Source of the DNA: Dictyostelium discoideum
Taxonomy: Eukaryota
Reading direction: 5' to 3'
NCBI GenBank assembly: GCA_000004695.1
Contig: CM000151.3
Span: 6,432,001 to 6,496,000 of the forward strand
DNA: 64,000 nt
Part shown: positions 7,663-62,872 of the stretch, piece by piece
Layout: each line of letters begins with the position of its first letter
Position numbering within the stretch: position 1 is the first letter of the stretch
The notes under the pieces: generated by a model
What the model saw: only the letters and a program-made list of their open reading frames with translations
Database searches by the model: none
Told to the model about the DNA's origin: nothing
Program-made: the position numbers and the translations under genes

Positions 7663-7704
<42 letters not shown>

Positions 7705-13627: not shown

Positions 13628-14224
13628 TTAGTTTTTTAAAATGAAACCATTTTTTGGAGACTTTGAAATGAACCTATAAATTTGTTCCAATGATAAATGT
13701 TTAATATTTGAAGTATTTCCATTCAATATAAATACAAAGCCACCTGGTTCCAATTTTAGTAAACCTGGGTGCGAATATCCATTACCATTATAATATACTA
13801 TAGTATTGGTTTTAACTAGTCTCATTACTTCATTTCTAAAATTATTATTATTTCTATTTCTAAAATTATTATTATTATTATTATTATTTGGATTATTATT
13901 TGGATTATTATTTGGATTATTTGGATTATAATGGGTTAAATCTTTCATTTTTATTGAGGAACTATCTTTGATTTTATTTTTATTTTTATTCTTTTTATTT
14001 TTAATTTCTTTTTTAAAACAAAAGCAACCACAACAAAATATTAACTTTAGAATATTTCTAATGATTGGAAATTTAAAACATAAGACAATCACTATTACTA
14101 TAACTATAAGAGCTGTCAATAATAATGTAAATTTAGTTGCACAAATTTTTAGTTGTGTATAATAACAAACAACATTTAATCTATAATTATAAAAATAAGT
14201 AAAGGTTAGATAATTAGTTTTTAG

Positions 14225-14313
<89 letters not shown>

Positions 14314-15748
14314 GTTATTATTATTATTATTATTATTTTTAATTACATACAAATTTGGACAAACATCATCACAAGTAAATTCAGAACCAATATTTAAAGA
14401 ATCACCATCTAAAGAGTTATCACCAGATTGAGCACCATTATCAATTTCAGTATCAGAAGTATTAAAATTAATTCTTATACTATCGATAACTTGAGCCACT
14501 TCATTATATAAATCACCAAAACAATGATATGATGAATCTAATTTTGAAGTAGTATAAACTTGAAATACAAAACTATAAATTTCCTTTGATTTAATGGTTA
14601 CTTGTTGATTATTGATAGGATTAATATCACCAGTACAATTAATGATTGTCATTGTATAGTCTGCATTGATTGTACCAGTATTTTGGACGTTTACTCTTAG
14701 TACACCATTTTTTGACATTGATTCAAATCTATCGATTTGGTAATTTATAATTTTACCAGGTGAAATATTAACAATATATTGAAGTGAATCGGCTTTCAAT
14801 GTAATGGTTAACATTGTTCTATGGGATTCATCAAATCTAATTTTCAAAGATCTTGAATCTTGATTACCTGCAATCTGAACCTTTGTACCCAATTGAGAGG
14901 CTATATAATTTCCCTTCTTACCACTGGAAATCAATGCAACATCGGCATTATAATAATCTGCAATTTGATTTTGAAGACAAGAACCAAATAAAGCGGCACA
15001 ACTATTGGGTTGATTTTGAAAAGCACTATAGGAAACACCGATTTTATTACAAGTTAAACCTGATAAATCAAAGAAATTCTGATCCAACACCATACAAGTG
15101 TTTATAGAATTTGGTTGATTGTAGGGAAATACCACTTTCTTATCAGTGAATTGATTGATTTGAGTCGATGATTGAAAATCACCAATAATTCTAACAATTG
15201 CTTGACTAAATGTATCCATACCCATTGGAGCTGAATTTGATAGTATAATATCTTGAGTGATTGGATTTTGATTATAACTATAGGTTAATGTCGCTGTTAT
15301 TGTATATTCAACTTGAGTTTTTGCAACATTATAAACATCATATTTCACCGAACTAAATGATAAACAATGTGCTGATGATGATTTGGACCCTAATAATGAA
15401 CAACCTAAATTTGCTCTTGAATTTTGATCGGCACCAACATAATCTGAAAAAGAACAACTACAACAAAATCCTTGACTGTCTCTAATTAATTTACCATTGG
15501 CATCTATTGCACCTGGACATGTATGATCAGTTGGTTTATCTTTACAACCACTAGTTAAAACATAATCAGTTTTATAAATAACAGTTTCTTTTGGTTGATA
15601 AGCTACATTTTGTACATAAACTAATGGATAATTTATAAATGTTTCTGATTTTTTAAATTTTACTGAAATTGGTATAACTAATGTTTTTAATTTACCATTT
15701 TCATCTTTAATTTCACTAACTTGAAAATTAAATGTTTCTGAATTTTCC

Positions 15749-16690: not shown

Positions 16691-18078
16691 ATGACATTAG
16701 ACCCATATTCAGGATCAGTCGATTGCCGTGACTGGAAGAAATCAGCAATTAAAAAAGCTATTGAAGATGGTATATTTAAAGAACATGACTATGTAATGCT
16801 TTATAATCTTGACGAATTCAGAGCACTTGCCAAAGAAGCCTGCGACAACTTAAAAGGATTACAAACTATGGCAGTTAAATGTAATCCAGTTATGAGCTTA
16901 ATGAAAGAAGCAATTAAAGCTGGTCTTGGTGCTGAAGTTGCTTCATTTGGTGAATTAAGAATTGCAGAAATAGCTGGTTTTGAACCATCTGTAAGTATTC
17001 CAAAAATTTTTAATTCTTTTAAAATAAAAAAAAAATAAAAAAATAAAAAAATAAATCCTAATTTTTTTTTTTAATGAAAAAGAAAATTATATTTGATTCA
17101 CCAATTAAAACAAAAAAAGAATTAGAATATGCATTAAATTTAGGTGTTGTAATTAATATTGATAATTTTGAAGAATTAGAAACTATAGAATCAATTGTTT
17201 CAAAATTTTCAAAGGAAAAATATGAAAGTCTTTCGTTGGGTATTAGAGTGAATCCACAAGTTGGAGCAGGTAAATTAACTGATCTTAGTACAGGTGTACC
17301 AACATCTAAATTTGGTATTGGTATTGAACATAAAGATAAGATCATCGATGCCTATGTACGTAACAAATTTTTAAAGGGAGTTCATATTCATGTTGGATCA
17401 CAAGGTTTTGAAATTTCAAATATATCAGAATCTGCAGTTAAAGTTATGAATTTAGTGAAAGAGATTAATGCACGTGATGATACAAAATCTCAAATTACAT
17501 TCTTTAATATGGGTGGTGGTTTATCAGTAAACTTTGAATCAGAAGAGACTTCACCAACTTTCACTCAATATGCCAATCACATGAAACAATTATTACCAGA
17601 ATTATTCAATGGTGAATTTTTATTGATTACCGAATTTGGTCGTTCCTATTGGGCAAAATGTGGTGTCGTAGTTTCAACAGTTGAATATACAAAATCAAGT
17701 GGTGATCGTGAAATCGCAATTTGTCATGCCGGTGCAAATATGTACATTAGAACCGTTTATCAATTCCCATTGTGGAGAATTAGAGTAACCATTTTCGATT
17801 CAAATGGTGAATATAAAACTGGAAATGAAAAAATCACAGATATCGCTGGTCCTTGTTGTTTTGCCGCTGATGTTTTAGTAAAAGAAAGATTATTACCACC
17901 AATTAAAAAAGATGATTTCATTATGGCACATGATAGTGGTGCTTATATGCTTTCAAGTTATTCTCATTATAATTTAAGATTAGCTCCACCAATTTTCTCT
18001 TTTAATACCACAAATAATACAATTGAATTAATTAAAAAAGGTGAAACTATTGAAGATAAAATTAATTTCTTTTCTTAA
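16691..18078 (+). CDS. PLP-dependent decarboxylase of the Orn/DAP/Arg decarboxylase family (fold-type III; ODC/DapDC-like). Two exons: 16691..16990, 17083..18078 (431 aa).
   Basis: ATG at 16691. Donor GTAAGT at 16991; acceptor gaaaaag at 17082; phase 0. 'AVKCNP' matches the PLP-lysine motif (YAVKCN). Also present are a Gly-rich 'FNMGGGLSV' loop, 'HIHVGSQ', 'EFGRSY', and C-terminal 'AGPCCFAADVL' (the substrate-specificity Cys region). The exact substrate cannot be assigned. Confidence 0.75.
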
Positions 18079-18282: not shown

Positions 18283-20161
18283 TTAAAAAAGATCAGAAAT
18301 TAAATCTTTTGACGATGGTTTACAATTTTCAGGAATATCAAATGAAGCAATGATTTGTTTTGAAACTTTGGTAACTTCAAAACAAAGATCTTGAATTAAG
18401 AATGGGATTGATTGAGCAACATTTGGTGAGATTAAGTGATTTGAAACGAACCAACCTAAATCTTCTTCAATGGAGACAAGAGCGTCCAACATAATTAAAT
18501 GAGCTAATGGTTTAACGTTTTTAAGTTTTAATGTATTGATAGAGTTTTGGAAAACGATTTTAGTCATGTGAGCAAAACCTAATTTGACAGCCCATGGAAT
18601 TGCATTGTTAAAAGCGAAATAAGCAGGTTCTTTAGAGTTGCTAATGATTTGTTTTAATTCGGCCAAACGAATCTCTTCTCTAGTTTCAAATAATTGATTA
18701 ATATTTGAAAAATTGAATAATAACGATTTGGCATCTTCACCATCTAAATAGATACGATTGGTAGTGGTATTTGTTTGTTTTTGTTTTACACCTAATAAAT
18801 ACTTGGCCAATTGTTGCATGAGAACAGTATTATCACCTTCATATGTACAAACGATATCACAATCATTTTTAAATTCAGCTATACGATTTGCTGAACGGTA
18901 ACCTTGACCACCACAAGCTTCACGACAAGTTTGGAGTGCTGCAACACAGAACCAACTGTAAACTGCTTTGATACCTGAGCAATGGGCATGGATTGAAGCT
19001 GGTAATTTCTCTTGACATAATTCATTGGTTAAACGTTGAATGTAAAGATCAAACAAGATGGTTCTTGCCAATGGTGCCATAAGACGACGTTGTTGTGAAC
19101 TGAGAGTAATCAATGGAAGCTCATTATTTGCAGATGGACCAAACTGTTTTCTAATATGTGAGAATTCAATAGCAATAGAGAGGGAGGTTTTGGCAGCACC
19201 TGAACAACCTTTAGTGATTGCCATTCTACCAACAATGAATGGTGCCATTGTTGCAGCGAAATTCTTTATTGGTGTATTGAATTGACTCTTGTAAACACCG
19301 TCTTCGCTAACATCACTATATTTGTTTAAAAGGTTCTCTCTTGGGATACGAACTTGATCGAAACGAATTTGACCATTATCAATACCATTCAAACCTAACT
19401 TATGACCACAATCTTTAATGGTGATACCTTTCATGATTGCACCACTCTTTGGACAACGAAGTGGTACAACCAATGCATGAACACCATAATTTGTACCATC
19501 AATGATTAAGTTTGCGAAAACAGTAGTGTAGGTAGCATGAAGATAAGAACCACCAATCCAAAACTTTTCACTTGTTGGTGTTGGTGAATGAATGATAAAC
19601 TCTTTAGTTTGTTTATCGTAATGTGCAGTAGTTTCAATACCACGAACATTTGAACCATGACCAATCTCTGTCATTGCAAAGCAACCCATTGTCTTGAGGG
19701 TATTAGCATCTTCAATATATTTCTCATGTCTTGAGGTACCTAAAAACATGATTGTACCTCCAAATAATGTATAATGAACACCCAATTTGGTACAAACATT
19801 GTTATTATACAATGAAAACATTTCTACAACACCAGCATATCTGTGAAGGTTATTCTTAATATCAGTCAAATGAATTAATCCACTATTTGCAACAGCAACA
19901 CATTGTTCAAGTACTAATTGTCTATAGGTAGCCATATCCAATCCAATGAAATTCTCTTTGAATTTTGGATGATTTCTAATGAATTCTCTTGCTGCATCCT
20001 TATATTTACTTGCTTCAACTGAATCAATTAATAATTTTAATTCTCCAACATTTATATTTGCATCAATTGAATTAAATAATTCTTTTTCTAATACTTCATT
20101 TTTATTATTTGTTGTTTGACTATTAACATCTAAATGTTTTTTAATCTATATTATATATATG

Positions 20162-22071: not shown

Positions 22072-23950
22072 TTAAAAAAGATCAGAAATTAAATCCTTTG
22101 ATGATGGTTTACAATTTTCAGGAATATCAAATGAAGCGATAATTTGTTTTGAAACTTTAGTAACTTCAAAACAAAGATCTTGAATTAAGAATGGGATTGA
22201 TTGAGCAACATTTGGTGAGATTAAATGATTTGAAACGAACCAACCTAAATCTTCTTCAATGGAGACGAGAGCATCCAACATAATTAAATGAGTTAATGGT
22301 TTAACGTTTTTAAGTTTTAATGTATTGATAGAGTTTTGGAAAACGATTTTAGTCATGTGAGCAAAACCTAATTTGACAGCCCATGGAATTGCATTGTTAA
22401 AAGCGAAATAAGCAGATTCTTTAGAGTTGTCAATGATTTGTTTTAATTCGGCCAAACGCATCTCTTCTCTAGTTTCAAATAATTGATTTATATTCGAAAA
22501 ATTGAAAAATAACGATTTGGCATCTTCACCATCTAAATAGATACGATTGGTAGTGGTATTTGTTTGTTTTTGTTTTACACCTAATAAATACTTGGCCAAT
22601 TGTTGCATGAGAACAGTGTTATCACCTTCATATGTGCAAATGATATCACAATCATTTTTAAATTCAGCTATACGATTTGCTGAACGGTAACCCTGGCCAC
22701 CACAAGCTTCACGACAAGTTTGGAGTGCTGCAACACAGAACCAACTGTAAACTGCTTTGATACCAGAGCAGTGAGCATGGATTGAAGCTGGTAATTTCTC
22801 TTGACATAATTCATTGGTTAAACGTTGAATGTAAAGATCAAACAAGATGGTTCTTGCCAATGGTGCCATAAGACGACGTTGTTGAGAACTGAGAGTAATC
22901 AATGGAAGCTCTTTATTTGAAGATGGGCCAAATTGTTTTCTAATATGTGAGAATTCAATAGCAATAGAGAGGGAGGTTTTAGCAGCACCTGAACAACCTT
23001 TAGTGATTGCCATTCTACCAACGATGAATGGTGACATTGTTGCAGCGAAATTCTTTATTGGTGTATTGAATTGGCTCTTGTAAACACCATCTTCGCTAAC
23101 ATCACTATATTTGTTTAAAAGGTTCTCTCTTGGGATACGAACTTGATCGAAACGAATTTGACCATTATCAATACCATTCAAACCTAACTTATGACCACAA
23201 TCTTTAATGGTGATACCTTTCATGATTGCACCACTCTTTGGACAACGAAGTGGTACAATAAATGCATGAATACCATAGTTTGTACCATCAATGATTAAGT
23301 TTGCGAAAACTACAGCATAGGTAGCATGAAGATAAGCGCAACCAATCCAAAACTTTTCACTTGTTGGTGTTGGTGAATGAATGATAAACTCTTTAGTTTG
23401 TTTATCGTAATGTGCAGTAGTTTCAATACCACGAACATTTGAACCATGACCAATCTCTGTCATTGCAAAGCAACCCATTGTCTTGAGGGTATTAGCATCT
23501 TCAATATATTTCTCATGTCTTGAGGTACCTAAAAATATAATTGGACCTCCAAATAATGTATATTGAACACTCAATTTCGTTAAAATATTATTATTATACA
23601 ATGCAAACATTTCTAAAGCGCCTATATATCTGTGAAGGTTATTCTTAATATCAGTAAAATGAATTAATCCACGATTTGCAATTGCAGCACATTGCTCAAG
23701 TACTAATTGTCTATAGGTAGCCATATCCAATCCAATGAAATTCTCTTTGAATTTTGGATGATTTCTAATGAATTCTCTTGTTTCATCCTTATATTTACTT
23801 TCTTCAACTGAATCAATTAATAATTTTAATTCTCCAACATTAATATTTGTATCAATTGAATTAAATAATTCTTTTTCTAAAACTTCATCCTTATTATTTG
23901 TTGTTTGACTATTATTAACTTCTAAATGTTTTTTTATCTATATTATATAA

Positions 23951-30927: not shown

Positions 30928-31760
30928 TCAACATCAGTAGCTTGGAATGCCAATGGCACAAAAATTGCAAGTAGTGGTTCAGATGGTATAGTTAGAGTTT
31001 GGAATTTTGATCCATTAGGAAATAGTAATAATAATAATAATAGCAATAATACTAGTAGTAATAGTAAAAATAATAATATTAAAGAAACAATTGAATTAAA
31101 AGGACATGATGGTAGTATTGAAAAGATTAGTTGGAGTCCAAAAAATAATGATTTATTAGCAAGTGCAGGAACAGATAAAGTTATAAAGATATGGGATGTT
31201 AAAATTGGTAAATGTATTGGTACAGTTTCAACAAATAGTGAGAATATTGATGTACGTTGGTCACCGGATGGTCAATTCATTGTAGCATGTACACGTGATG
31301 ATCATTTAGCATTAATTGATTTACCAACTATTAAAACCTTGAAAATCTATAAATTCAATGGTGAAGAATTGAATCAAGTCGGTTGGGATAACAATGGCGA
31401 TTTAATTCTAATGGCAAATTCAATGGGTAATATCGAAGCTTATAAATTCTTACCGAAATCAACCACACATGTAAAACATTTAAAAACTTTGTATGGTCAT
31501 ACTGCAAGTATCTATTGTATGGAATTCGATCCAACTGGTAAATATTTAGCAGCTGGTTCTGCCGATTCAATCGTTAGTCTTTGGGATATTGAAGATATGA
31601 TGTGTGTTAAAACTTTTATAAAATCAACTTTTCCATGTAGATCGGTTTCTTTTAGTTTTGATGGTCAATTCATTGCTGCTTCTTCTTTTGAATCAACAAT
31701 TGAAATTGTAAGTAAAAATGAAAATGAAAATAAAAAATAATAATTTTCAAAATAAAACTC

Positions 31761-36554: not shown

Positions 36555-37229
36555 ATGGATAATAATAATAATAATAATAATCCAAATAATAATAATCCAA
36601 ACAATAATCCAAATAATAATAATGAAATAGTTTTAGATATTAATAATGAAAATAAATATATTTTTGGTTTAAAATTTAATTATCCAAAAAAAGAAAATAA
36701 TGTTATTGTAAAAAGAAAAAGTGATAATAAAGATAAATTTATATGGATATTTTCAAATGAATACCCAATTAATTTAAGAGATTATATTTCAAAAGAAGAT
36801 TTTAAAAATGATATTAAAATAGTAAATGGATTAAATGGCTATTTTATATTTATAATTGGTTTATATTCATTTTGGGTGCTATTTTTTTCAGTTATGTTTA
36901 TGATTGGATTCATTCCAAAAATAAGTCCAGTTCTTTTGGGTTTATTTGGTCCATTTTTATTTTTCTCAATTTTAAGTTTAATTTATCAATTAAAGTTTAA
37001 AAGACATAAAACATTTTTAAATTATTTAGAAGGAAGAATTCGTCATTTAAATCATAAATATAGAGATATTCAAATAGTTTGGAAATTAGAAAAAAAGATT
37101 TTTATAAATTTTCATAGAGAAAAGAAATTAAAAGTTTGGATTGAAATTCAACTTCCAAATTATCCAATAAAGATTGTTCAATCTTGTCCACAATTTTCAA
37201 ATATTCAAATTTCAATACCAAATAATTGA
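36555..37229 (+). CDS. Hypothetical membrane protein (224 aa, single exon) with an N-terminal Asn/Pro-rich segment and two predicted TM helices.
   Basis: Real ATG at 36555. Hydrophobic segments FIFIIGLYSFWVLFFSVMFMIGFI and VLLGLFGPFLFFSILSLIY. No recognisable domain. Confidence 0.45.
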   Translation: MDNNNNNNNPNNNNPNNNPNNNNEIVLDINNENKYIFGLKFNYPKKENNVIVKRKSDNKDKFIWIFSNEYPINLRDYISKEDFKNDIKIVNGLNGYFIFIIGLYSFWVLFFSVMFMIGFIPKISPVLLGLFGPFLFFSILSLIYQLKFKRHKTFLNYLEGRIRHLNHKYRDIQIVWKLEKKIFINFHREKKLKVWIEIQLPNYPIKIVQSCPQFSNIQISIPNN

Positions 37230-37383: not shown

Positions 37384-39238
37384 TTATAATTTTTGAACTT
37401 GAAGGGTACCATTTGGTACAAGACCAGCATCTTGAACTGAAATTGATTTTAATTCATCGTTTGTATAAATTTTTCTTGGATAAGTACTTGAAAGTGTGAA
37501 TTTACCATGTTGAGAAGTATTATTTGAAATAAAAGTATGAACATCAATTAGTTTGGTTGATAATGGGAAAGTACCTTTAATGGTGGTACCATCTGTAAGA
37601 CGAATTTGAATGAGTGATTCTGTATAGTTTTGTTTTGGTACATAAACTGGAACTGGAGTTGGAGTTGTAGTGGTGGTGGTGGTGGTGGTGGCAACATTGT
37701 TATTTAGGGTTGCATTCTTTTTAGCAGCTCTTTCAAGACGATCAGCTTCAACTTTTGCTTTAATTTTTGCTTTTGCAATACGATCTGCTTCTTTTTCTTT
37801 TCTATCTTTTTCTTGTTCTCTCTTTAATTGATCCTCTTGCCATTTGGTGAGAGCTTGTTGAGTTGATTTACCACCTTGACGACGATTAATCTCTCTTTCA
37901 ATCTCTTTTTTAGCCTCTTCTTCGGCTTTCTTTACTCTAATCTCTTGAATTCTTGCTTCTAATCTTTTCTTTTGTTCTGCTTTCTCCTCTGGTGTCATTT
38001 GATAGTTTTCAATATCATTTTCATGTGCCACAAATTCATGTTCTGGATTATGTTTATTTGTATCTTTACAAGTTTGACAAAGATCATAATTTGGGCAAAC
38101 CTTACATTTATATCTATAACCTATGATTTGATTTTGACACATATCACATAATGCATTATGAACAGTTGTTGGATATTCTTTTTGTTCACTTGTAGTTGTT
38201 GTTGTTGTTGTGGTGGTAGTTGTACTACCATCAGTATTTGTAGTAGATGGGGTTGTAGTTGTTGTTGATTCACTTTTAGTGGTAGTAGCACCAGTATCAC
38301 CTTCTAATGGATCATCAATAGTTGGAGAATCCATATTTTCAAAAATCCAATCCATTGCAGATTGAGAACTTGAATTATTTACCATAATCAATGCTTTTCT
38401 ACATCTATTCTCTGGAAAACCCATATCTATTAAATCTTTCATCATAATTGGATCTGGTTGTGTTGCTCTTGCTGGTGGTCTACTCTTTGTTGCTGTTGAT
38501 GATGATGATGATGTAATTGGTGTTGGTACAGTTGGTGATGTTGTAGTATTACCATATTGTTGTTGATATTGTGCTTGTTGTTCTTGTTGTTTTTTTTCTA
38601 AATTATCTAAATAAGCTTGACGACTATTTCCACTGCCACCCCCACCACCACCCAATGCATTACCTTGTGATGCAAATGAAAGTTGTGGTTGTAATCTTTC
38701 AATTGAACTTTTTAATTGATTTTTATCAGCACCACTAAATTCATGAACTTGTTTTCTTTCAATAAAGAATTTAAATGTTGGCATTGCTCTAACACCTTGA
38801 CTTTGTGTTGTTGACTAAATAAAATATAAAAAAATAATAATATAAAATTATTAATATATATATATAAATTTAAAAGTTTATTATAATAATTTAAATTTTT
38901 TTAAAAAAAAAAAAAAAAACTACAAGAAATTTTTTTTTTTTACTTACTTTACACTGATCAACATCAACTTTTAAGAAAATAACATCTTTATATTCTGATG
39001 ATAATTGTTCGAAATATGGACTAATCATTTTACATGGTCCACACCATGTTGCTGTAAAATCTACAACAACTAATCTTTTACCTGCTGTAACTAATTCTGA
39101 ATCAAGTTGATTATCAACTAAAACTATTGATTATTAAAAAAAAAAAAAAAAATTTCATATTAAAACCCAATCATCAAATTTTTTAATTTACTAAATTAAT
39201 ATTATTATAAAAATATACTCACCTTTTACTCTTGACAT
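37384..39238 (-). CDS. Thioredoxin-UBA-ZZ finger-UBX domain protein (about 540 aa). Three exons: 39238..39223, 39123..38948, 38814..37384.
   Basis: ATG at 39238. Donors GTGAGT (39222) and GTAAGT (38947); acceptors caatag (39124) and atttag (38815); phases are consistent. Thioredoxin fold '[18 protein letters not shown]...[12 protein letters not shown]...AMPTFKFF'. UBA-like '[39 protein letters not shown]'. ZZ finger '[28 protein letters not shown]'. Coiled-coil K/E-rich segment. UBX-like C-terminus '[28 protein letters not shown]...YPRKIYT'. Confidence 0.75.
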
Positions 39239-39733: not shown

Positions 39734-39912
39734 AATATGAATCAATACCAATCAAATGATAGAGAAAGGAAAGATTTATCAATGGACTATATCATAAAGA
39801 AAGGTTGATTATCATCGATGATTAAAATTTTATTTCTAAAGTAATAAAATGAATCAATACTAATCAAATGCCAGAAAAAGGAAAGATTTATCTATGCACT
39901 ATGGCATTTTGA
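39734..39912. repeat. Two tandem copies, about 110 bp each, of a non-AT-rich unit in the upstream region of the thioredoxin-UBX gene.
   Basis: atgaatcaataccaatcaaatgatagagaaaggaaagatttatcaatggactat / atgaatcaatactaatcaaatgccagaaaaaggaaagatttatctatgcactat. Confidence 0.6.
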
Positions 39913-41008: not shown

Positions 41009-41086
41009 GATATCGTAGCGAAGTGGTAACGTATTTGACTGAATCAAAGCTCCTAGGAGGCGCAGGTTCGAATCCTGCCGATATCG
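41009..41086 (+). tRNA. Class-II tRNA with a long variable arm; anticodon region reads UGA (Ser-like), but the anticodon loop is atypical. Possible pseudogene.
   Basis: The acceptor stem gatatcg/cgatatc pairs over 7 bp. D-arm 'GCG AAGTGGTAA CGT' contains a GG. Canonical T-arm gcagg-TTCGAAT-cctgc. Variable arm ctcc-ta-ggag. Downstream T5 terminator at 41091-41095. The anticodon stem-loop 'tttga ctgaa tcaaa' folds either as a 5-nt loop or as a 7-nt loop with C33. Confidence 0.55.
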
Positions 41087-44906: not shown

Positions 44907-47900
44907 TCATATGAATTGATCAAAAGATATAATATTTGGGAGAGATGATTCTGGAATACAATAGTAATTAGCTGTTGTTTTTCTTAGCTTGATCGTTGAG
45001 GTGAGAAGGATCTTAGGATCTTTGAAGTTATTATGGTCTTTTGCTGATAAGTTTTTCAGATCTTTTGCTTTTTTGATGTATTCTAGAGTGGCCAATTTGT
45101 GCCATTTCTTTAGAAGGGAGCTGTATGATAGTGATTCATTTGTTAAAGGATCTTCGCTGTATATTTGATTGCAAATCCAAATCCAAATGTTGTGGAGGAT
45201 AAGGGCCATTAGGTTTCTATATGCGAATGATCTGGTTAGATCATAGTCTATTGCTTTATAGTTCCATTCAAAGTATTCTTTGTGGAATCTGTGGTTGGCG
45301 TAATCTGCATTCACTTCTTGATCTTTTTTGGCTGTCGGTGATAATTTTGGAGTTATTCTATTAATGAAATTGTTATTTTGCCTAATTCTTGTATGGTGCC
45401 AGTTTTTACCTTTGCCTGTGGTAATATAGATGAAATTTTTGAGTTTATTTATTTTTATGAATTGTTTTGTTTTCTTGCATGAGAAGAACAGGTGACCGTA
45501 TGGGTCTTTGCTCATATCTTCTTTGCAGAGTGGGCATTGTTTGTTGTGAAGGTAGTTTATTGGAAGGCATCTGGCATGGAATCTAAACATTGTGTCTCTT
45601 GTTTTAGGGTCTTTTATCTTCAGTATGTTGTTGAAGAGTTGATTATAGCTGTAGCCTCTTAAGTTTAGAGATGATTGGAATTCCGTTTTAGGGATGGTTG
45701 GATTTTGGTCTTGAATTGTGGTATACCATTCTGCCAGTGAAAGTGGTTGTCCATTTTCGTTTTTTATGGATGTGAGATTATTGTTGAAGATTGCTTTTTT
45801 TATTCTTATTTTGTTCCATTCGTCTAAGTTTTCTTTTAGGTATCTGGATGTGAATTTGTTTTTTTGGATCTGATATTCCCAGCTTTTGTGATGAGATGAG
45901 TTTGTTTGTTTGGTTTCTAGTGCTAGGATGAACTGGTTTATGATCCAAAGTTTCTGCGCCAGTTGTCTCAATTCTATATTCCAAATGTTCCAGCCCCCTA
46001 CTTTTAGTGGGTATCTTGCTCTTTTGGTTCTCATTAAATTAATAACTTGAAATCCACTAGCATTTTTGTTGTTTGGTGCCGATAAAAACCATTCGACTAA
46101 TTTATTGATTTGGTTTAATTCCTCTTCCTTAAAGTTCTCTACATATGAATAGTAGGTTAATTTAGAGAGTGCGAATGCTTTGAGGATGTTGGTTTTGGTT
46201 TTGATTGTTGAGTCAGTGGTTTTCCATAGTACTAAGGATGATCTTATTGTGTTTAATATTTCTGGCATTTTTCTTGTTATCCCTTTGCCTGTGAAGAAGT
46301 ATCCCAAGTATCTTTCTGGATTTGTAGATATTGGAATTCTTTGGTTGGTATTGTCTGGGTTGCCTATAAGAATTGATGAAGATTTGTCGATGTTTAGTTT
46401 TGAGGAAGTGGCTTTGCAAAATGAATTGAAGTGTTGTAGTACTAATTCAAGTTGTTGAGAGTCTGGGACCATTGAAGCCGAGTCGTCTGCAAAGCTTTGG
46501 AATTTCTCTCTGTGGTTGCTGTTGTTTAGAGGAAGGCCAGTAATTCGGTCATCTTGTAAAATTTTTCTAGCTAAAGCCTCTATTACAAGGACGAACAGGG
46601 TGGGTGATAGTGGATCTCCTTGTTTAACTCCTCTTTTGATCTCAAAGGGTATAGTAGTTCTACCATTAATTTCAATTCTTGCTTCAGATTTGGTGAGTAG
46701 ATTCATTATCAGGTTGATTATATTGGTTGGAATGTTGATGTGTTGTAGTGATCTGAGTATTGAACCGTGTGAGATCGAGTCAAAAGCTTTTTCGAAATCA
46801 TATAGTGTAATTATTCCGTTAATTCTTTTATCATTACAATAGTTGATTAATTCGTTCATTGATATGATATTATCTATAATGAATCTGCCTGGTACGAAAC
46901 CTTTTTGATTGTGGTTGATCACTTTCGTTAGTATTGGGATTATTCTATTGTTTATTAGTTTTGAGTGGATTTTATATATACAGTTAGCCAGTGTAATTGG
47001 TCTTCTGTTTTTGATTAGTTCGGGGTCTCCCTTTTTAGGTATCGTGATAATGAGGCCTTCTTTGTAATTTTTGCTAATTAGATGAGGATTTCTTAGAGTG
47101 TCGTTGAATGCTGAGGCCAGTATTGGAGCTAGTTTTTCTTTGTGTGTTATGTAGAATAAGTTTGGAATTCCATCTGGGCCTGGAGATTTGTGTGGGTTCA
47201 ATTGTTTTATTACTTCTAGGATCTCTTGTGATGTGAATTCATTTTCAAGGTTGTCCCATGTTGAGTCCCTGGTCACTGTCCAATTTTCCAACATTTCATA
47301 ATGAGATGGTGGGTCATCTTCTTTGTAGTCATAAAGATTTGAGTAATATTTTACGTATTCTTCTTCGATCAATTCCTGTTTGTTGATTGTTCTACCTTGT
47401 GCATCTTTTACTGCGTTGATGGTGAAATCATTGTGTCTTTTCTTGATTCTCGCGGAGATGTACTTGAGTGAGGTTTCTTCGCAATAGTTGTTCAATTCTT
47501 GTTTAAGTTGTTCTTCTCTTTTTTTAGATTCATTTATTGCTGAAAGGGTTGCGAAGGCTTGGTCTTTAAATTCTGTCTCTAGTAGGGAGATTAGATTTTT
47601 GATGTTTGCCTTATTGTTGTAGTCATTTTGTTTTTGAAATTCTGTGTATAGTTGTTTTATTTTGTTTAGTAAGCTGTTGAGTTGAGAGAAGGAAATAGAG
47701 TTATGGTTGGATGACAGCTCCCTTGAATAATCGTTAAGTAGGAAGTCTATTTTCTTAAGCATTATGCTTGAGAGGATTGAGGATTTTTTTAATCTCCATC
47801 TGCGCTTGTTCATCTGTATGTTGGGTAGAGTGAAGGTGGTTGATAGGAAGTTGTGATCTGATAGAGGTATGTCATTAATTTTTGGGGGGATTAGGTTCCT

Positions 47901-48611
47901 TAAGTATAATTGGCTGTAGTTGATTATGCTATTGTTAAGGTATATTCTGTCTAGTCTCCTTTCCAAGATTCTTGTGAGGTTATTGTTTGTGTTGTGTATC
48001 GTTCTTGAGAAGGTGGGTCTTTTATTTAGTTGGTCCATATCCATTAGGTTATTTGAAATTCTGATGGCTTCGATTACTGTGGCCATCTCATCTGGGGATT
48101 GTGTTGTCAAGTTGCCTTGGTCATCATTTGATGTGTGATTGTCATTGAAGTCTAAACAATTGAAGTCGCCTGCTATGATGTCGATGTTTTTTTTAGGGTT
48201 AGACGTTAGGTTGTGGTATTGGTTGTTGAAGTGTTTGTTTAGTGTTGAAGCTAGTGTTTTTCTTTTATCAGGTTGGGCCGGGGCGTATATGGCCAAGATT
48301 CTCGTTGTGGTATCTTTTATTAGAATGTCTGATATTATTAGTCTACCTTCTATTATGAATATTGGTGAGAGTTTTATGTTTTGGTTGTTGTGGTTTAGTA
48401 TTCCTATTCCGTTGCCTCTGTTGGTTGCGCTAATGATGGAGCCAGGAAATAGCTGGTGTGCTTGTGTTGCGTCGGCGTTGAGTTCATTGACTATGGTTAG
48501 TGCCAATGAGTTTGGGGGGGATTGGGATTTGATAAAGTCTGTTTTGTTTTTGAAGGAGGTGTCAGTGCCCCAACCTCTGACATTCCATTGGTTGATTTTG
48601 ATTACTACCAT
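44907..48611 (-). CDS. Retrotransposon ORF2: apurinic-like endonuclease + reverse transcriptase + C-terminal CCHC zinc knuckle (1234 aa).
   Basis: Real ATG at 48611. The N-terminal EEP fold 'LAIYAPAQ...GDFNCLDF...SDHNF'. RT motifs 'PGPDGIPN', 'FEKAFDSISH', 'QGDPLSPTLF', 'SFADDSA' (YXDD box). C-terminal 'CPLCKEDMSKDPYGHLFFSCK'. Confidence 0.85.
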   Translation of the reverse strand: MVVIKINQWNVRGWGTDTSFKNKTDFIKSQSPPNSLALTIVNELNADATQAHQLFPGSIISATNRGNGIGILNHNNQNIKLSPIFIIEGRLIISDILIKDTTTRILAIYAPAQPDKRKTLASTLNKHFNNQYHNLTSNPKKNIDIIAGDFNCLDFNDNHTSNDDQGNLTTQSPDEMATVIEAIRISNNLMDMDQLNKRPTFSRTIHNTNNNLTRILERRLDRIYLNNSIINYSQLYLRNLIPPKINDIPLSDHNFLSTTFTLPNIQMNKRRWRLKKSSILSSIMLKKIDFLLNDYSRELSSNHNSISFSQLNSLLNKIKQLYTEFQKQNDYNNKANIKNLISLLETEFKDQAFATLSAINESKKREEQLKQELNNYCEETSLKYISARIKKRHNDFTINAVKDAQGRTINKQELIEEEYVKYYSNLYDYKEDDPPSHYEMLENWTVTRDSTWDNLENEFTSQEILEVIKQLNPHKSPGPDGIPNLFYITHKEKLAPILASAFNDTLRNPHLISKNYKEGLIITIPKKGDPELIKNRRPITLANCIYKIHSKLINNRIIPILTKVINHNQKGFVPGRFIIDNIISMNELINYCNDKRINGIITLYDFEKAFDSISHGSILRSLQHINIPTNIINLIMNLLTKSEARIEINGRTTIPFEIKRGVKQGDPLSPTLFVLVIEALARKILQDDRITGLPLNNSNHREKFQSFADDSASMVPDSQQLELVLQHFNSFCKATSSKLNIDKSSSILIGNPDNTNQRIPISTNPERYLGYFFTGKGITRKMPEILNTIRSSLVLWKTTDSTIKTKTNILKAFALSKLTYYSYVENFKEEELNQINKLVEWFLSAPNNKNASGFQVINLMRTKRARYPLKVGGWNIWNIELRQLAQKLWIINQFILALETKQTNSSHHKSWEYQIQKNKFTSRYLKENLDEWNKIRIKKAIFNNNLTSIKNENGQPLSLAEWYTTIQDQNPTIPKTEFQSSLNLRGYSYNQLFNNILKIKDPKTRDTMFRFHARCLPINYLHNKQCPLCKEDMSKDPYGHLFFSCKKTKQFIKINKLKNFIYITTGKGKNWHHTRIRQNNNFINRITPKLSPTAKKDQEVNADYANHRFHKEYFEWNYKAIDYDLTRSFAYRNLMALILHNIWIWICNQIYSEDPLTNESLSYSSLLKKWHKLATLEYIKKAKDLKNLSAKDHNNFKDPKILLTSTIKLRKTTANYYCIPESSLPNIISFDQFI

Positions 48612-49864
48612 TATGAGATGATATCGATCTCCTCTTGGGAGTCGTATAGCTGCGGTTTGGATGGTGAAGGGTAGATACTCTCTATGAAGCTCTCAATGAT
48701 TCCTTTCCTTTCTTTTTTGACAGGTGTCTTAGGGGTGGATGGGATGTAAGGGTTGCTTCTGTTTATTGTTGGTGAGAGTTGGGTGACCTCGTTGTTTGAG
48801 TGGATTTCCTCGTTCTTGCGTTTATGTGATGGAGGGATGTTTGGTGTCTTCTCTCTGTTTTCCGAGGATGAATGGATGTTAGTGCTCGTTTTGTTGGCAT
48901 TGTCTTTTTGGATGGCGTTGGATGTTGTGGTAGTGGTTGTGGTGGGTTTGACAGATTGAGATTCTGCTTGGTTTTTGGGGGGAAGAGGTTGAGAGGACTT
49001 TTTTGATTGGGCTTTTTTCTCTTGGGTTGATTGTTTATCAGACTGATTGTTTGCTGGGTCATTTGTTTGTTGTTGTGGTTTTGGTTGAGAGGATTTGATT
49101 GCTATCCTGTTTTGGGTGTTGGGAGGATCATCTGTCATCTCATCTTCTAATGGTTCTTCCGTGTTGTTTAACTCTACTTTCTTATTTTTCTTTTGTGAGG
49201 AGTAGGTTTTGGTGGCCGTTCTGATGGTAAAGTTGGCGATTTCTGTATTGTGTTGGCCAGATTTCATTTGATCGCCTATTTTGCATTCTATTAGACCGAA
49301 TACTAGGAGGTGGTCGGTGGAGTATATAGTATGGTATATTGCATAGGGTATTTCTTCTGCAAAGGCAGTTTTGATGAGGGCGTCCACTATTCCTGCCTTT
49401 TCTCTTGGAATTCTTACTCTTCCTGTGAGGACGTGGTAGTCTCTACTGGAGGTGATGAAGGTTCCCAATTTGCTTCTATCTCTAATGATATTTAGGAGAG
49501 ATTGTTCGTTTTTAATCATCAGGTGTATCATTTTTCTAGTTCCTTTGCCTATGTATATCTTGTCGATTGGGATATCGTAGTTTGAGAGTGTTTTTCTCAT
49601 TTCTTCTAACCCCATGAGATCCATTTTGGGGAATTCGAGTGTAATTGGGTAGAATCCGTTGTTTTTCTCGTAGGTTGAGAGCGCAGTCATGTTCAATATG
49701 GTCTCGCAGTATTTGGAGATGTCTTTGAGGCCTATTGATAATTTGGGATAGGTCTCCTTTATCTCTGCTGTTTTTGTGGAGAATTCCTTAATGAAGTTCT
49801 CTGATGCCTCGTCCATATGGGTGGAGGGGTTGGCCATTTTAGCCGCGTCTGCGTAGGAATTCAT
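48611..49864 (-). CDS. Retrotransposon ORF1 (417 aa, basic Gag-like; Pro/Thr/Gln-rich C-terminal half).
   Basis: Real ATG at 49864. The stop overlaps the ORF2 start. Confidence 0.7.
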   Translation of the reverse strand: MNSYADAAKMANPSTHMDEASENFIKEFSTKTAEIKETYPKLSIGLKDISKYCETILNMTALSTYEKNNGFYPITLEFPKMDLMGLEEMRKTLSNYDIPIDKIYIGKGTRKMIHLMIKNEQSLLNIIRDRSKLGTFITSSRDYHVLTGRVRIPREKAGIVDALIKTAFAEEIPYAIYHTIYSTDHLLVFGLIECKIGDQMKSGQHNTEIANFTIRTATKTYSSQKKNKKVELNNTEEPLEDEMTDDPPNTQNRIAIKSSQPKPQQQTNDPANNQSDKQSTQEKKAQSKKSSQPLPPKNQAESQSVKPTTTTTTTSNAIQKDNANKTSTNIHSSSENREKTPNIPPSHKRKNEEIHSNNEVTQLSPTINRSNPYIPSTPKTPVKKERKGIIESFIESIYPSPSKPQLYDSQEEIDIIS

Positions 49865-50147: not shown

Positions 50148-50228
50148 GGAAAAACTGTTGATAAAGGCGAGATTCGAACTCGCGAAGCCGAAGCATAAGA
50201 ACTTGAGTCTTACCCATTTGACCACTCT
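50148..50228 (-). tRNA. tRNA-Leu (anticodon CAA), class II, 81 nt, followed by a T5 terminator.
   Basis: Read on the minus strand: acceptor GGTAAAG/CTTTATC (7 bp including one G-U). D-arm CCA-GAGTGGTCAAA-TGG. Anticodon arm TAAGA-CTCAAGT-TCTTA (loop C-U-CAA-G-U). Variable arm containing GC-UUCG-GC. T-arm GCGAG-TTCGAAT-CTCGC. Discriminator A. Terminator TTTTT at 50135-50147. Confidence 0.8.
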
Positions 50229-50420
50229 GGTACTTTACCTTTTGAAAATAATTGAGAATTACGGTTGATATTGACCACTGTGATACTTTACCTTTTGAAA
50301 CCATGAATTACGGTGAGTCTTACCCATTTGACAACTCTGATACTCTACCTTTTGAAAACCATTGGGAATTACGGTTGATTTTGACCACTTTGGTACTTTA
50401 CCTTTTGAAAACCTTGGCTA
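50190..50420. repeat. Tandem array of about 4 units, roughly 60 bp each. Each unit is a copy of the tRNA-Leu 5' half (about 35 nt) plus about 25 nt of upstream flank (ttttgaaaa..attacgg).
   Basis: 'gagtcttacccatttgaccactctggtactttacc ttttgaaaataattgagaattacgg' is followed by 'ttgatattgaccactgtgatactttacc ttttgaaaccatgaattacgg', then 'tgagtcttacccatttgacaactctgatactctacc ttttgaaaaccattgggaattacgg', then 'ttgattttgaccactttggtactttacc ttttgaaaacc'. Confidence 0.7.
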
Positions 50421-57495: not shown

Positions 57496-57496
<1 letters not shown>

Positions 57497-60400
57497 TATT
57501 TTAATTTAAAACTTACAATATGATCATTTGGTAAATCAATGAATCTTGGTAAATAAGATGGTAAAGTATGCAATGATATTAAATTTTGGGTTGAAGGTGG
57601 ATTGATAGTACCTCTTTTTGAAAATTCATCACTATTGACTAAATCAACGATTGAAGGTAAACCTAATTTCTTAATCAACTCTTTTACATTTGAGAATGAT
57701 TCAATTGATAAACCACTAAATGTATTGATAGTATCTTGATTTGAAGGATTTGTAGATTTATGATTAACTAATAAATAACAATAATGATGGAATAAATAAG
57801 CTTTTCTAATGAATGGAGTTAGAATTGTTTCAATGGTTTCAATTTCACCTTCATTTGATAAAGAGTAATTTTCATGAACTGGATTTGAAATTCTTGAGCT
57901 AATAATATCACTTGCTAAATGAATGTATGATTTATAAATATATGGATATGGATTGACATCACGATTTAAGAAATGACTCATTGCACAAATTATAAATGGG
58001 TCAATATTGTGAAATCTCTTTTGTTGATCTAAAGAATAGAAATCGAAATATTTATAATTAAATTGAATATCTGTTAATTTCATAACATTATTATATAACA
58101 ATGTTAAAGTTTCTAATTGACGTTGAAATTCAGATTTTGAATAAATATAATAACCATTATTATTATTATTATTATTATTACCAATACCATTTAGACCATC
58201 TAAATTATTAATACCACTATTTGTATAATTATAATTCTTTCTTGAAGTAATTTCTAAAATTTCAATATTTGATAAAATAAATTTCAAGAAATAAATAGCA
58301 TTTGATGGATTTAATTGCTTTGGTGGATATTGATAACTCCAATCAGAGTTTACAAATGAAAAGAATAAATTTGAAACCAATGCTGTATTTTCAGGGTGAG
58401 CAACAAGATCAGAGTGATTAATAGGTTTAACTATTAATGCAATATTAGAGGCACGATTACATAATGGACATTTAAAGTGATCATTTACATAGTATGGTGC
58501 ATAAACTGATAAACAACTTCTATGTATATAATGACCACAAGTTTGAACACGAGTTTTATTTGAAAATTGCATCAACTCTATATTTAAATCTATATCTAAA
58601 TCATCTATATCATATTTATTATATTCTTCATAGGTTTCAATATTCATTGGTAAATCAACATGTTTTTTATTCTCTTCAATTACTTCTTCTCCATTGTGTT
58701 GTTGTTGCTGTTGCTGTTGTTGTTGTTGTTGTTGTTGCTCTGGTTTTGAACTTCTTAAAAATGCTTGATAATTTGTAAACTTTTTAATTGAGGAATGTTC
58801 AATTAAACCAATTGAACAAATTGGATCAGTTATATTATTTGAATTATTTTTACAAACTACACAAACTAAATCTTTTTCTTCACCACTATGAATATGTTCA
58901 TTTGTAGTTGTTGATGAACCATTAAAATCTTCATCATCATCATCATTTAAAAGTTCATTAGATTGTAAGAATTGTAATTGTTGCATTCTCATTTTTCTTT
59001 TAATTTCTTCTTGTCTTTCTTGAGCGATTTTCTTTCTAATATTTGCATCAATTTCACTTTGTTGTGATAATAATGATGCCATATCTAATTTCTTTTCCTT
59101 TAATAACTTTTCAATATTATTATCATATTCATATAACATTGTAAATAATTTGTTAATTAAATTCTTTTTATCTGAAAATACATTATTCTTTTCAATATTT
59201 AATGATAATTCTATTATTAAATTTAATAAATTTGTTTCAGCAATATTTTGATTATTATTATGATTATTATTTTGATTATTATTATTATTTTCTTTAATAT
59301 TAAAATCTAATTTCTCTTCATTTTCTTCAATATTTTTAATAATTTCAATTGGTTTAAATAAAAGTAACATTGGATTATCACCATCAGCAGATTTGATATT
59401 ATCATTGAATAAAGATTTTTCAATTTTTTCATTTGCAATTGACATATTAATTAATTTTGAAAATTGTTGTTTTAATTGTTGATCAGTCAAAGAGATTGAA
59501 GATTCTAAAAATGTTCTAACTGATAAAACTATAATGTATAAGGTATGATTGAGTAATGGATCATAATATTGATTAAAATCATTTGAATCAACTTTAATTT
59601 TACCGGCAGATAACATTAAACTAAGGAAATTTGAAATATAAAAATCCATATCTCTTTCATCATTATTTTGAACATTATTATTTGAATTTGAAATTAAATT
59701 ATAATTTGGATATAAAAATTTTAATAAAATTGAATTTAAAATTGTAAATAAAATTGGTTCATTTAATAATTTTTCAACATTTTTTAAATTTTCAGGTAAA
59801 GGATCAGTTTTTGAAGGTAATGGATAAGATTCTGGTATTGGGTGATTATTTTGTTTTAAGTAATCATAATAGTTTGCCAATGATTTATAGGTGAAAGAAT
59901 TTGGATCGAAATAATGATATGGATAATAAACATCGAAACGATCCCAATACTCTGGTTTCAAAATTAACTTTCCATCTGGTTTTGGTTGATGACTAACTTG
60001 TTTAATTATATCTTCAACATTGAATAATGTAAATTCTTTACGTTGATCTAAAAGTTTTGAAAAGTTATTGGTATTAAAAGTTAAGGCTTGAATTATATGA
60101 TATCTTGCTTCTTGAATACCATATTTTGCTTGTTTTCTATGTTGAATGATAACAATGATATACTTTAGGAATTGGGATAACATTGTTGGATTATCAGTAT
60201 CCATATTATAGTTACCTGAAAAGTTATTCAATGCTAACAATATGAAATGTCTAGTACCCAATAGCATTGAACAATATTGTACCAATGTTAAATCGATTGA
60301 AAACAAAGACCAAATATAATACGAGGTGAAATCACTAATATTTAAATTTCTTTCCCATAGACGACATTGATGTTGACCCACTAGAATAGCGGGTAACATT

Positions 60401-61693
60401 GATTTGGTTGCCAAAAATAAAACAGTCTCCAATGGTATCTTTGATTTTATTGTATCAAATGAATACTGAGGTGAGTCATAAACTGAATTCAATAAATAAA
60501 TTCCAATTAATCTATTGGTTGGTAAATGTAATGGTACAGCGACTTCACCACTTAATATATTTGCCTTTGGTAATAAAGTACCACTAAACATTCTATGAAG
60601 AGCAGTGTCTGGGTTTTGATGTCTATCAATTGACAATTGTAAATGGCTCAAAAGGATGTCTAAATACTTTAAACTTGAAAAACCTTGTTTATGTAAACTA
60701 TGAAAGAATGTATCAAATGCCATAAATGATTGACATTCAATTGAAACCACATTTGAAATCACTGGTAGCTCGTATTCAATTGCTTTTTGAGTCTCTCTTT
60801 TGATTGGACATAACAATTGAATTTCATCAGTGATTGCCAATAGAGAATTTACAACGGTATCAGAGTTGTTATCAATATATTCACAATTTTTGTCGTGTCT
60901 AAAAATATTGGAGATATAATTATAATCTTGATTACAATAAAACTCTTGATCATAGTTCTTTCTCTGTGTGGCATTGTATAGATCATATTTATTCTTTGTT
61001 TGAACCAATGAAAGTTTAGTTTTAATTAAAATTGATAAAAGGTTTTGTTTTGAATAACCAGTTGAAAATGGTACAGCGATTGAGGGTAATTCAAACATTT
61101 GACATGAAATGGCCGATACCAATGATCTAACTTGAGAATTTGAAGACAATGCCAACTTTGGATAATTGGTTAAAAACTCCTCACAAAAGATAAACTTAAA
61201 GTATCTATTACCAATTATTGTTATAATCAATGGTCTAAATATCATCAACACTCTTGGTTCGCCATGGATCAATGAAATGATTGATCCCACTGCATTGTTT
61301 TCCCTCTTTAATTGATCCACATTCTCATAAGAGAGTACTTCAGAGTATGGTAATTTCACTGGTGAATATAAATCAAAACTATTTGGATCCAATATACGTT
61401 GACTAAACTCCTCAGAGATTATATACAATAGTGGATATGATTTTCTTGCTAATCTATCAATAAACTTGAATAAATTAAATGATTGACTGAGTACTAATTT
61501 CTTTGTAAACTTTTTAATATTTTTCTTAAATATTGGTGTATCCATATTCAATTTTGTATTTGATGAAATTGGTTTAGTAATATCATTAAATATATGAAAA
61601 TTTTTACTAAATACTTCATTAAATAATTCAGTTTCATCACCACAATCTGATTCATCAGCTTCTTCGTTTTGTATCATTTCTTCATCTGAATTA

Positions 61694-61791
<98 letters not shown>

Positions 61792-62160
61792 TGGATTATT
61801 ATTATTATTTTGTTGTTGTTGTTGTATATTATTGTGGAAATCACGCATTATCTGGTTAAAACCATTATTATTAATTAAACCTCTAAGTGCATTAAATCGA
61901 TCGATATGTTCATCTGAATCAGAATCGGAATCAGAATCGGAATCAGAATCAGAATCATACATTAAATTTCTTAAATCTACATTATTGCCAGCATCTTCAT
62001 CCATTTCTTCGAGTGAACTATCTTGAATCATTTCACTATCACTATTTTCTTTATTGGTATTACTATAATCACTACTATAGTTAACGTCTTCTTCCTCTTC
62101 TTCTTCATTATAATGATTATTTCTGTTTTGGTTGTCGAAAAAGTTGATGTATCTGCCAAT

Positions 62161-62253
<93 letters not shown>

Positions 62254-62256
62254 ATT

Positions 62257-62322
<66 letters not shown>

Positions 62323-62505
62323 AAATCTAGGTCCTAATCCATTATTTATAATTGCTTCATTGTTAATATTGTTAATAAAACGATGGAAATACTGAATAAT
62401 ATTATTGTCTACCAAAAGGTTTCCAAATCCTAAGTTGCCTTCTTCTGGCTGTTGTTGCTGTTGCTCTTGTGGTTGTTCTTGAGGTGGTTGTTGCTGTTGT
62501 GGTAG

Positions 62506-62546
<41 letters not shown>

Positions 62547-62776
62547 GCTCTTGTGGTGGTTGTAGTTGTGGTTGCTCTTGTGGTAGTTGTTGTAGTGGAT
62601 GCTGCATTTGTTGTTGGCCTTGTAAAACGTTTCCAACTAAATTATTATTACCCATATCTAATACCCTATCAATAAAATTAATTTGACGAAGTTCAGCTAT
62701 TTCTTGTAGATCTATTCCTGGGAATACAAACTGTTGTTGTTGTTGCTGAAGTATCTGTGGTATCTGTTCTTGCTGC

Positions 62777-62872
<96 letters not shown>

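Follow-up and report, generated by a model that had tools for sequence, protein, structure and literature searches.

Thioredoxin-like folds and UBX domains are already known to occur in one chain: UBXN4/UBXD2 (erasin) and the UAS-domain proteins FAF1, FAF2/UBXD8 and UBXN7 combine a thioredoxin-like fold with a UBX domain, and these folds lack a CxxC motif and are non-catalytic. A catalytic role beside an unfolding machine has been proposed for TXNL1, which on the 26S proteasome would reduce substrates during unfolding (PMC12700817). In the present work, we analysed a stretch of 64,000 nucleotides of Dictyostelium discoideum DNA (hereafter the window) and describe one of its genes, which is very probably ubxd18 (DDB_G0276057), the gene of a p97-binding UBX adaptor, and whose product begins with a classical TRX1-type thioredoxin (Trx) domain. 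Considering its active site, its domain composition and its relatives, we suggest that this protein may be a p97-docked thioredoxin that reduces the disulfides of client proteins.

UBXD18 (DDB_G0276057) has been described as a protein with a UBA and a UBX domain whose nearest human proteins are UBXN1 and UBXD2 (Warren et al., 2020, PMC7519326). GFP-UBXD18 co-immunoprecipitates with Dictyostelium p97 (Ddp97-RFP; PMC7519326, PMC8473879), knocking out ubxd18 confers about two-fold resistance to decanoic acid, and the decrease in p97 ATPase caused by decanoic acid requires UBXD18 (PMC7519326). The same paper contains no mention of a thioredoxin, zinc finger, SHP motif, redox function or disulfide.

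The closest described animal system is UBXN1/SAKS1, with which Warren et al. also group UBXD18 (PMC7519326) and with which our protein shares a very long predicted helix between UBA and UBX, that of the predicted structure of human SAKS1 having been described in a 2023 review (PMC10641518). Residues 192-539 are collinear with an insect UBXN1-type protein that comprises a UBA, a C2H2 finger, a helix and a UBX domain and no Trx (BLASTP 2e-29). Since this Trx-less protein aligns collinearly, the gene, as judged from its sequence, encodes an adaptor of the UBXN1/SAKS1 family that carries an additional thioredoxin at its N-terminus. Two differences separate them: UBXD18 has an N-terminal thioredoxin (residues 5-103) with an intact active site and an SHP-like motif, both missing from the animal protein, and it has a ZZ finger (283-324), unlike the insect protein and the non-amoebozoan relatives, which have an OTU1-type C2H2 finger.

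Gene model and identity of the locus

The window is very AT-rich (GC about 15-40% per 2-kb segment, about 20% near the UBXD18 gene) and is characterised by intergenic poly-A/T tracts and short AT-rich introns. A single canonical GT-AG combination keeps the frame open and yields a protein of 540 residues, according to the following model:

37384..39238, (-): coding region from ATG to stop, 540 residues (exon assembly and identity to XP_643331.1 / Q75JM6)
39238-39236, (-): start ATG of the UBXD18 gene
39223..39238, (-): exon 1, 16 nucleotides, encoding MSRVK and base 1 of codon 6, with GTGAGT as donor
38948..39123, (-): exon 2, N-terminal two-thirds of the Trx domain including WCGPC, followed by a GTAAGT donor
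37384..38814, (-): exon 3, last third of the Trx domain, SHP-like motif, UBA, ZZ, long helix, UBX and stop, with a TTTAG acceptor upstream

The translation matches the D. discoideum AX4 protein XP_643331.1 (EAL69328.1, UniProt Q75JM6), named 'ZZ-type zinc finger-containing protein' in the database, at 100% of residues. A preliminary description of this DNA, made from the sequence alone, had proposed a three-exon gene at 37384-39238 encoding 540 residues, and these coordinates and this length prove exact. It had also joined Trx, UBA, ZZ and UBX domains in this one gene, and all four indeed score above the Pfam curated cut-offs. One could still suppose that gene prediction wrongly fused a thioredoxin gene with a separate UBA-ZZ-UBX gene, the Trx part holding two AT-rich introns and exon 1 measuring just 16 nucleotides. 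However, intron 2 interrupts the Trx domain itself, and its C-terminal third (from MPTF) lies together with UBA, ZZ and UBX within an uninterrupted open reading frame (ORF) of 466 codons; the fusion is therefore not an annotation artefact. Moreover, the collinear architecture recurs in more than 60 proteins, including complete transcriptome ORFs of other phyla, and the ubxd18 complementary DNA has been cloned and expressed (PMC7519326). An erroneous fusion is thus effectively refuted.

The position of the locus in the genome was deduced from two other genes of the window, which place it on chromosome 2:

14221-15348, (-): HAP2-GCS1 gamete-fusion homolog, matching hgrA
17074-18078, (+): adjoining Orn/DAP/Arg decarboxylase-family gene, matching ddcB

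These two genes, which lie in the window in this order, match hgrA (DDB_G0276069, PMC4910948) and ddcB (DDB_G0276067, PMC7092706), so the locus lies within the DDB_G02760xx block. The dictyBase identifiers, when counted in steps of two from hgrA (...69) and ddcB (...67) down to ...57, fit in direction and neighbourhood; extra small genes at 28-36 kb make the count inexact, and it is to be read as neighbourhood evidence only. Within the window, the UBXD18 gene is the sole gene seen to combine UBA and UBX. Its UBA is nearest to that of UBXN1 (1whc) and its UBX to that of UBXN4/UBXD2, which are the same two human proteins as those named previously for UBXD18 (PMC7519326). Finally, the published ubxd18 insertion obtained through restriction enzyme-mediated integration (REMI) sits in the UBA-coding region (PMC7519326), and GATC sites, as used in REMI, flank the UBA-coding segment at 38451 and 38310. 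The gene is in that respect already known, being annotated, with a published p97-binding function and a domain content present in public databases; if the locus is DDB_G0276057, the published co-immunoprecipitation with p97 applies to it.

Thioredoxin domain and associated modules

The modules of the protein, in sequential order from the N- to the C-terminus, are the following:

38698..39226, (-): Thioredoxin domain PF00085, residues 5-103, with both introns inside its span (Pfam E 5e-27, 94.4 bits; TRX1 E 1.6e-29)
39032..39046, (-): active site W32-C33-G34-P35-C36 (read from the sequence)
38650..38676, (-): SHP-box-like motif 111-FASQGNALG-119, right after Trx (alignment and motif counts)
38311..38454, (-): UBA (UBA_7, PF22562), residues 185-232, with the M195-G196-F197 loop (Pfam E 3.8e-18, 65.6 bits)
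38035..38160, (-): ZZ zinc finger PF00569 of the p62/SQSTM1 type, residues 283-324 (Pfam E 1.4e-11, 44.4 bits)
37702..37992, (-): one long alpha-helix rich in K, E and R, predicted for residues 339-435 (about 97 residues; AlphaFold2 predicted local distance difference test, pLDDT, about 84-94)
37393..37629, (-): UBX PF00789, residues 460-538, carrying R469 and, in a loop, Y509-P510-R511 (Pfam E 1e-15; 58.1 bits, cut-off 21)

The N-terminal domain is a classical TRX1-type thioredoxin, with an intact WCGPC, the cis-Pro (P76) and the buried Asp (D27). In sequence comparison, it scores 106 bits with human TRX1 and 70 bits with TXNL1, and the Trx module of an AlphaFold2 model based on an alignment of 18 orthologs superposes on human TRX1 with a root-mean-square deviation of 0.6-0.7 A and 50% identity (Foldseek). 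Foldseek run with the whole model retrieved thioredoxins only, since the Trx module dominates the comparison, which is uninformative on the other domains. The TXNL1-like label given previously to this domain should thus be replaced by TRX1-like: Pfam finds no PITH domain (PF06201) in the 540 residues, whereas the true TXNL1 proteins among the relatives carry PF06201. The resemblance to TXNL1 is functional and not a family membership. It is here the closest functional analogy, as both proteins would tether a CGPC thioredoxin to an AAA+ unfolding machine, but in the UBXD18 family docking would occur through UBX, SHP or PUB on p97 and not on the proteasome. A UAS-like domain was considered and rejected, as the UAS-type Pfam model Thioredoxin_7 remains below its cut-off (E 0.015, 15.8 bits against 27) and the CxxC motif is present and conserved; unlike that of the UAS-domain UBX proteins, the domain of UBXD18 is a bona fide PF00085 thioredoxin.

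In the AlphaFold2 model, the four modules are predicted at pLDDT about 87-95 and are separated by disordered Thr/Ser/Gln/Gly-rich linkers. The segment previously called UBA-like is a UBA by its Pfam score and by its best single-domain match in the PDB, the UBA of mouse UBXN1/SAKS1 (1whc, 49.5 bits). The model places its three helices at 186-194, 199-208 and 214-223, and it carries the MGF loop through which it is predicted to bind ubiquitin.

The ZZ segment taken alone has the ZZ structures of p62/SQSTM1, an N-degron reader, as best solved match (E 1.6e-11). The equivalents of the p62 zinc ligands (C128, C131, C142, C145, C151 and C154) are kept in 27-30 of the 30 ZZ-bearing members of the family. 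In p62, the N-terminal residue (arginine) is held in a pocket formed by D129, D147, D149, R139 and N132 (PMC6197226). Among the ZZ-bearing members, the equivalent of R139 is conserved in 27/28 and that of D149 in 30/30, so that zinc ligands and both of these residues are kept across the family; at the D147 position, 23 members have D and 7 have N, and at the D129 position 18 have D and 10 have N. The D. discoideum pocket retains D129, D149 and R139 and, unlike p62, has Asn for D147 and Gln for N132. UBXD18 also differs from p62/SQSTM1 by lacking the PB1 domain, the LC3-interacting region and the context of a C-terminal UBA.

The K/E-rich region that follows had been described as a long coiled coil, which we consider doubtful. 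Charged residues make up 54% of it and hydrophobic ones 14%, and a hydrophobic core is missing from every heptad register, so that a classical coiled coil was judged unlikely; on the basis of the model, a lone charged helix of 97 residues is the more likely structure. This predicted helix looks like a spacer that separates UBX from the modules binding the substrate.

The UBX domain is well supported. UBXN4/UBXD2 (erasin) is its closest solved relative (E 1.2e-5 with the single sequence, 3.1e-19 with a family profile), and the 26 solved chains that the family profile retrieves at E<=1e-3 are UBX domains without exception. AlphaFold2 folds residues 463-539 as beta-beta-alpha-beta-beta-alpha-beta, i.e. 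a beta-grasp, at pLDDT 81-91. A model of the UBX segment calculated from a single sequence (pLDDT 51.6) was discarded in favour of the family-profile search of solved structures. Profile methods, named in the preliminary description as the decisive check on its ZZ finger and UBX-like beta-grasp, therefore support both. The domain carries the R...[F/Y]PR signature predicted to bind the p97 N domain, with R469 in strand 1 and Y509-P510-R511 (Tyr for Phe). With this signature and the published co-immunoprecipitation of UBXD18 with p97, the proposal of a Cdc48/p97 adaptor very probably stands as well.

The SHP-box-like motif is absent from the preliminary description. Directly C-terminal to Trx, the family shows the consensus FxGxGxxLG; the strict form [FW]xGxGxxLG, 1-12 residues past Trx, occurs in 38/84 linkers, as compared with 0.0065 on average, and never more than 1, after shuffling of residues within these linkers. 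The relative P0087 reads FSGSGNRLG at this position, to be compared with FSGSGNRL in Ufd1, whose SHP box FRAFSGSGNRL, with both glycines 'strictly conserved', binds p97 at the Nc lobe of its N domain (PMC5042407). Many members of the family thus pair a canonical SHP box with UBX, like p47/NSFL1C and Ufd1, and in these relatives the sequences suggest a bipartite SHP and UBX docking comparable to that of p47, which would bring the thioredoxin adjacent to the p97 N domain. Unlike p47, UBXD18 has no SEP domain, and in FASQGNALG, the D. discoideum motif, the first of the conserved glycines is missing.

Family distribution and role of the thioredoxin

An exhaustive phmmer search of 1.84 billion representative sequences returned 131 proteins at E<=1e-30. 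Domains were tabulated with hidden Markov models built from orthologs, over all the proteins fetched to that point, and the architectures obtained include, besides fragments, 26 Trx-UBA-ZZ-UBX and 42 Trx-UBA-UBX proteins. The four-domain form is found in Amoebozoa, namely Dictyostelia, Ceratiomyxa, Mastigamoeba, Clastostelium and Phalansterium (names as given in the sources). The form without ZZ, in which Pfam confirmed Trx, UBA and UBX in 42/42 proteins, is found in chytrid fungi, Planoprotostelium, Thecamoeba, the glaucophytes Cyanophora and Gloeochaete, the red algae Porphyridium and Galdieria, and Diphylleia, and part of its members have an OTU1-type C2H2 finger at the position of the amoebozoan ZZ. 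In Paratrimastix, the order is permuted to UBA-helix-UBX-Trx. Finally, a sister group, known here only from metagenome or Logan contigs (e.g. P0030-P0032 and P0035), is composed of Trx, an SHP-like motif, UBA, a helix and PUB, the PUB domain being detected in 14/19 and a UIM in some; PUB binds the C-terminal tail of p97 (PMC5042407). The Trx-UBA core is therefore paired with three p97-docking modules, UBX (42/42), PUB (14/19) and the SHP box (38/84 linkers). The domain architecture had been presented as unusual. This holds in comparison with animals, yeasts and land plants and does not hold among protists, where it is common, and the Trx-UBA-UBX arrangement is probably that of an old family.

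Residue conservation was counted on an alignment of 63 non-redundant members (for ZZ, the 30 ZZ-bearing members). In the Trx domain, both cysteines of the active site, whose WCGPC had been correctly read in the preliminary description, are present in the 60/60 members that cover it; 57 members keep the Trp, 63/63 the cis-Pro and 54 the buried Asp. The other modules are conserved to a similar degree: the M-G-F loop of UBA is kept in 59-60 of 63, and in UBX the strand-1 Arg in 56/63 and the loop residues [Y/F] in 56/63 (Y 29, F 27), P in 63/63 and [R/K] in 60/63 (R 51, K 9). The conservation of active site and cis-Pro throughout this wide eukaryotic family speaks for a p97-linked catalytic role of the thioredoxin domain, which is apparently active.

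The same counts bear on the possibility that the Trx domain is non-catalytic and either offers a chaperone surface of the holdase type or senses a ligand or fatty acid, in the latter case comparable to the UAS domains of FAF1, UBXD8 and UBXD7. UAS domains, which share the thioredoxin-like fold, bind unsaturated fatty acids, and fatty-acid sensing would explain the decanoic-acid phenotype. Indeed, the resistance of the knock-out is specific to decanoic acid, and its authors cite the control of UBX proteins by fatty acids (PMC7519326); TXNL1, for its part, is reported to have a chaperone function independent of redox (PMC10570131). Against this, both cysteines, the Trp, the cis-Pro and the buried Asp are conserved almost absolutely in different eukaryotic supergroups, which is unexpected if the domain had a structural role only, and the domain matches PF00085 (E 5e-27) and not the UAS-type model (E 0.015, below cut-off). 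We therefore consider a non-catalytic thioredoxin improbable.

We propose instead, with a probability of about 0.5, that UBXD18 is a p97-docked thioredoxin which reduces the disulfides of clients. UBX would dock the protein on the p97 N domains and, in most relatives, the SHP box right after Trx would provide a second dock. UBA would capture the ubiquitin chains of clients, ZZ (or the OTU1-type C2H2 finger in non-amoebozoan relatives) would make a second client contact, possibly with a free N-terminus, and the long helix would set the spacing of the modules. The tethered thioredoxin would then reduce disulfides in clients such as oxidatively cross-linked proteins or proteins derived from the endoplasmic reticulum (ER), p97 would unfold and thread them, and thioredoxin reductase and NADPH would recycle the thioredoxin. 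This scheme parallels the one proposed for TXNL1 at the entrance of the proteasome (PMC12700817). We infer the redox activity from the conserved catalytic residues.

Alternatively, the target of the thioredoxin might be the machine itself, the domain keeping cysteines of p97 or of a cofactor reduced or switching the activity of adaptor and p97 according to the redox state. A conserved CxxC next to p97-docking modules fits this role equally well, and mammalian p97 is inactivated when Cys522, in the Walker A motif of D2, is oxidised. Moreover, UBXD18 changes the ATPase behaviour of p97 in cells (PMC7519326), and the TXNL1 study leaves room for a reduction of proteasomal cysteines (PMC12700817). 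However, UBA and ZZ, the client-binding modules located between Trx and UBX, are equally conserved, which fits client processing better. An action on the machine seems to us rather unlikely, if slightly less so than a non-catalytic domain.

Several observations weigh against client reduction by UBXD18. The link between the locus and DDB_G0276057 is indirect, made through neighbourhood and domain affinities, and the gene identifiers step irregularly over 28-36 kb (extra small genes). The D. discoideum SHP-like motif is degenerate; because Ser replaces the first conserved Gly, its function is uncertain in this species, and the bipartite SHP and UBX docking may not apply there. In the D. discoideum ZZ, the equivalent of p62 D147 is Asn. 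The literature we searched holds no redox assay, substrate or Cys mutant for UBXD18 or its relatives, and a connection with disulfide reduction is not obvious from the published phenotype (decanoic-acid resistance, mTORC1). Finally, the proteasome can thread some disulfide-linked chains (PMC12700817), so unfolding does not necessarily depend on a reductase.

Client reduction by UBXD18 can be extended, somewhat more tentatively, to the whole family. An ancient family of p97/Cdc48 adaptors, spread over several supergroups, would bring an active thioredoxin to p97 through SHP and UBX (PUB in the sister form) as a disulfide reductase acting during unfolding; animals would keep only a Trx-less remnant, UBXN1/SAKS1, and ZZ may add N-degron recognition. 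If the domain is catalytic, p97 would possess a disulfide reductase of its own, in line with the recent proposal on TXNL1 and the proteasome, and this would bear on the unfolding of oxidatively cross-linked or ER-derived proteins. The idea extends known biology and would not be a surprise in kind. Two p97-cofactor reviews and the UBXD18 paper (PMC7519326) are silent on a thioredoxin or redox function, and searches combining thioredoxin domain, UBX domain and Cdc48 returned nothing relevant. In the searched literature, the catalytic thioredoxin, the SHP box, the p62-type ZZ, the wide conservation and the recurrent coupling of Trx to p97-docking modules thus appear unexplored. As a Dictyostelium knock-out, a rescue construct and a p97 ATPase read-out exist, the idea is directly testable.

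Other features of the window

The intergenic region upstream of the UBXD18 gene contains two direct copies of a segment of about 55-60 bp (identified by eye) that starts with ATGAATCAATAC[C/T]AATCAAATG, at 39737-39800 and 39829-39895 (+), about 90 bp apart. No ORF of at least 45 residues begins there; the ATG at 39737 was accordingly rejected as a start, as it belongs to this short duplicated segment and to no evident gene. On the other side, the convergent downstream neighbour (36555-37229, +) ends 155 bp from the UBXD18 stop and encodes 224 residues with an Asn-rich N-terminus and hydrophobic segments, for which the only match is a sub-threshold one to the Erf4/GOLGA7 family (E 1.4e-4; 22 bits, cut-off 29).

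About 20 kb from the UBXD18 gene, an ORF of 1960 residues (57496-63378, -) contains a UBR-box zinc finger and is a candidate N-recognin-type E3 ligase. UBR-box and ZZ both read protein N-termini; the proximity of the two genes is probably coincidental.

Two tandem ORFs of the acyl-CoA oxidase/dehydrogenase family (18283-19941, -, and 22072-23730, -), of 552 residues each, share 95% identity, suggesting a recent tandem duplication. One of them may be 'beiA' (DDB_G0276063, PMC6198379). The window also includes a fragment of the gene of the CCR4-NOT subunit Not1 (3703-8421, -, ORF of 1572 residues) and one exon of a THOC3-like WD40 protein (31339-31740, +), both ordinary housekeeping genes.

A transfer RNA (tRNA) gene, tRNA-Ser(UGA), is located at 41009-41086 (+), in the AT-rich and gene-poor stretch that separates the UBXD18 gene from the block described hereafter. 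The block itself, at 44907-49864 (-), is composed of back-to-back ORFs of 1234 residues (with a reverse-transcriptase domain) and 417 residues (with no Pfam match). It has a GC content of 33-41%, far above that of its surroundings, and a strong GC/AT skew, and tRNA-Leu(CAA) lies on the same strand (50159-50239, -), about 300 bp past the 417-residue ORF. The block looks like a tRNA-gene-targeted retrotransposon lacking long terminal repeats (non-LTR), of the Dictyostelium TRE type.

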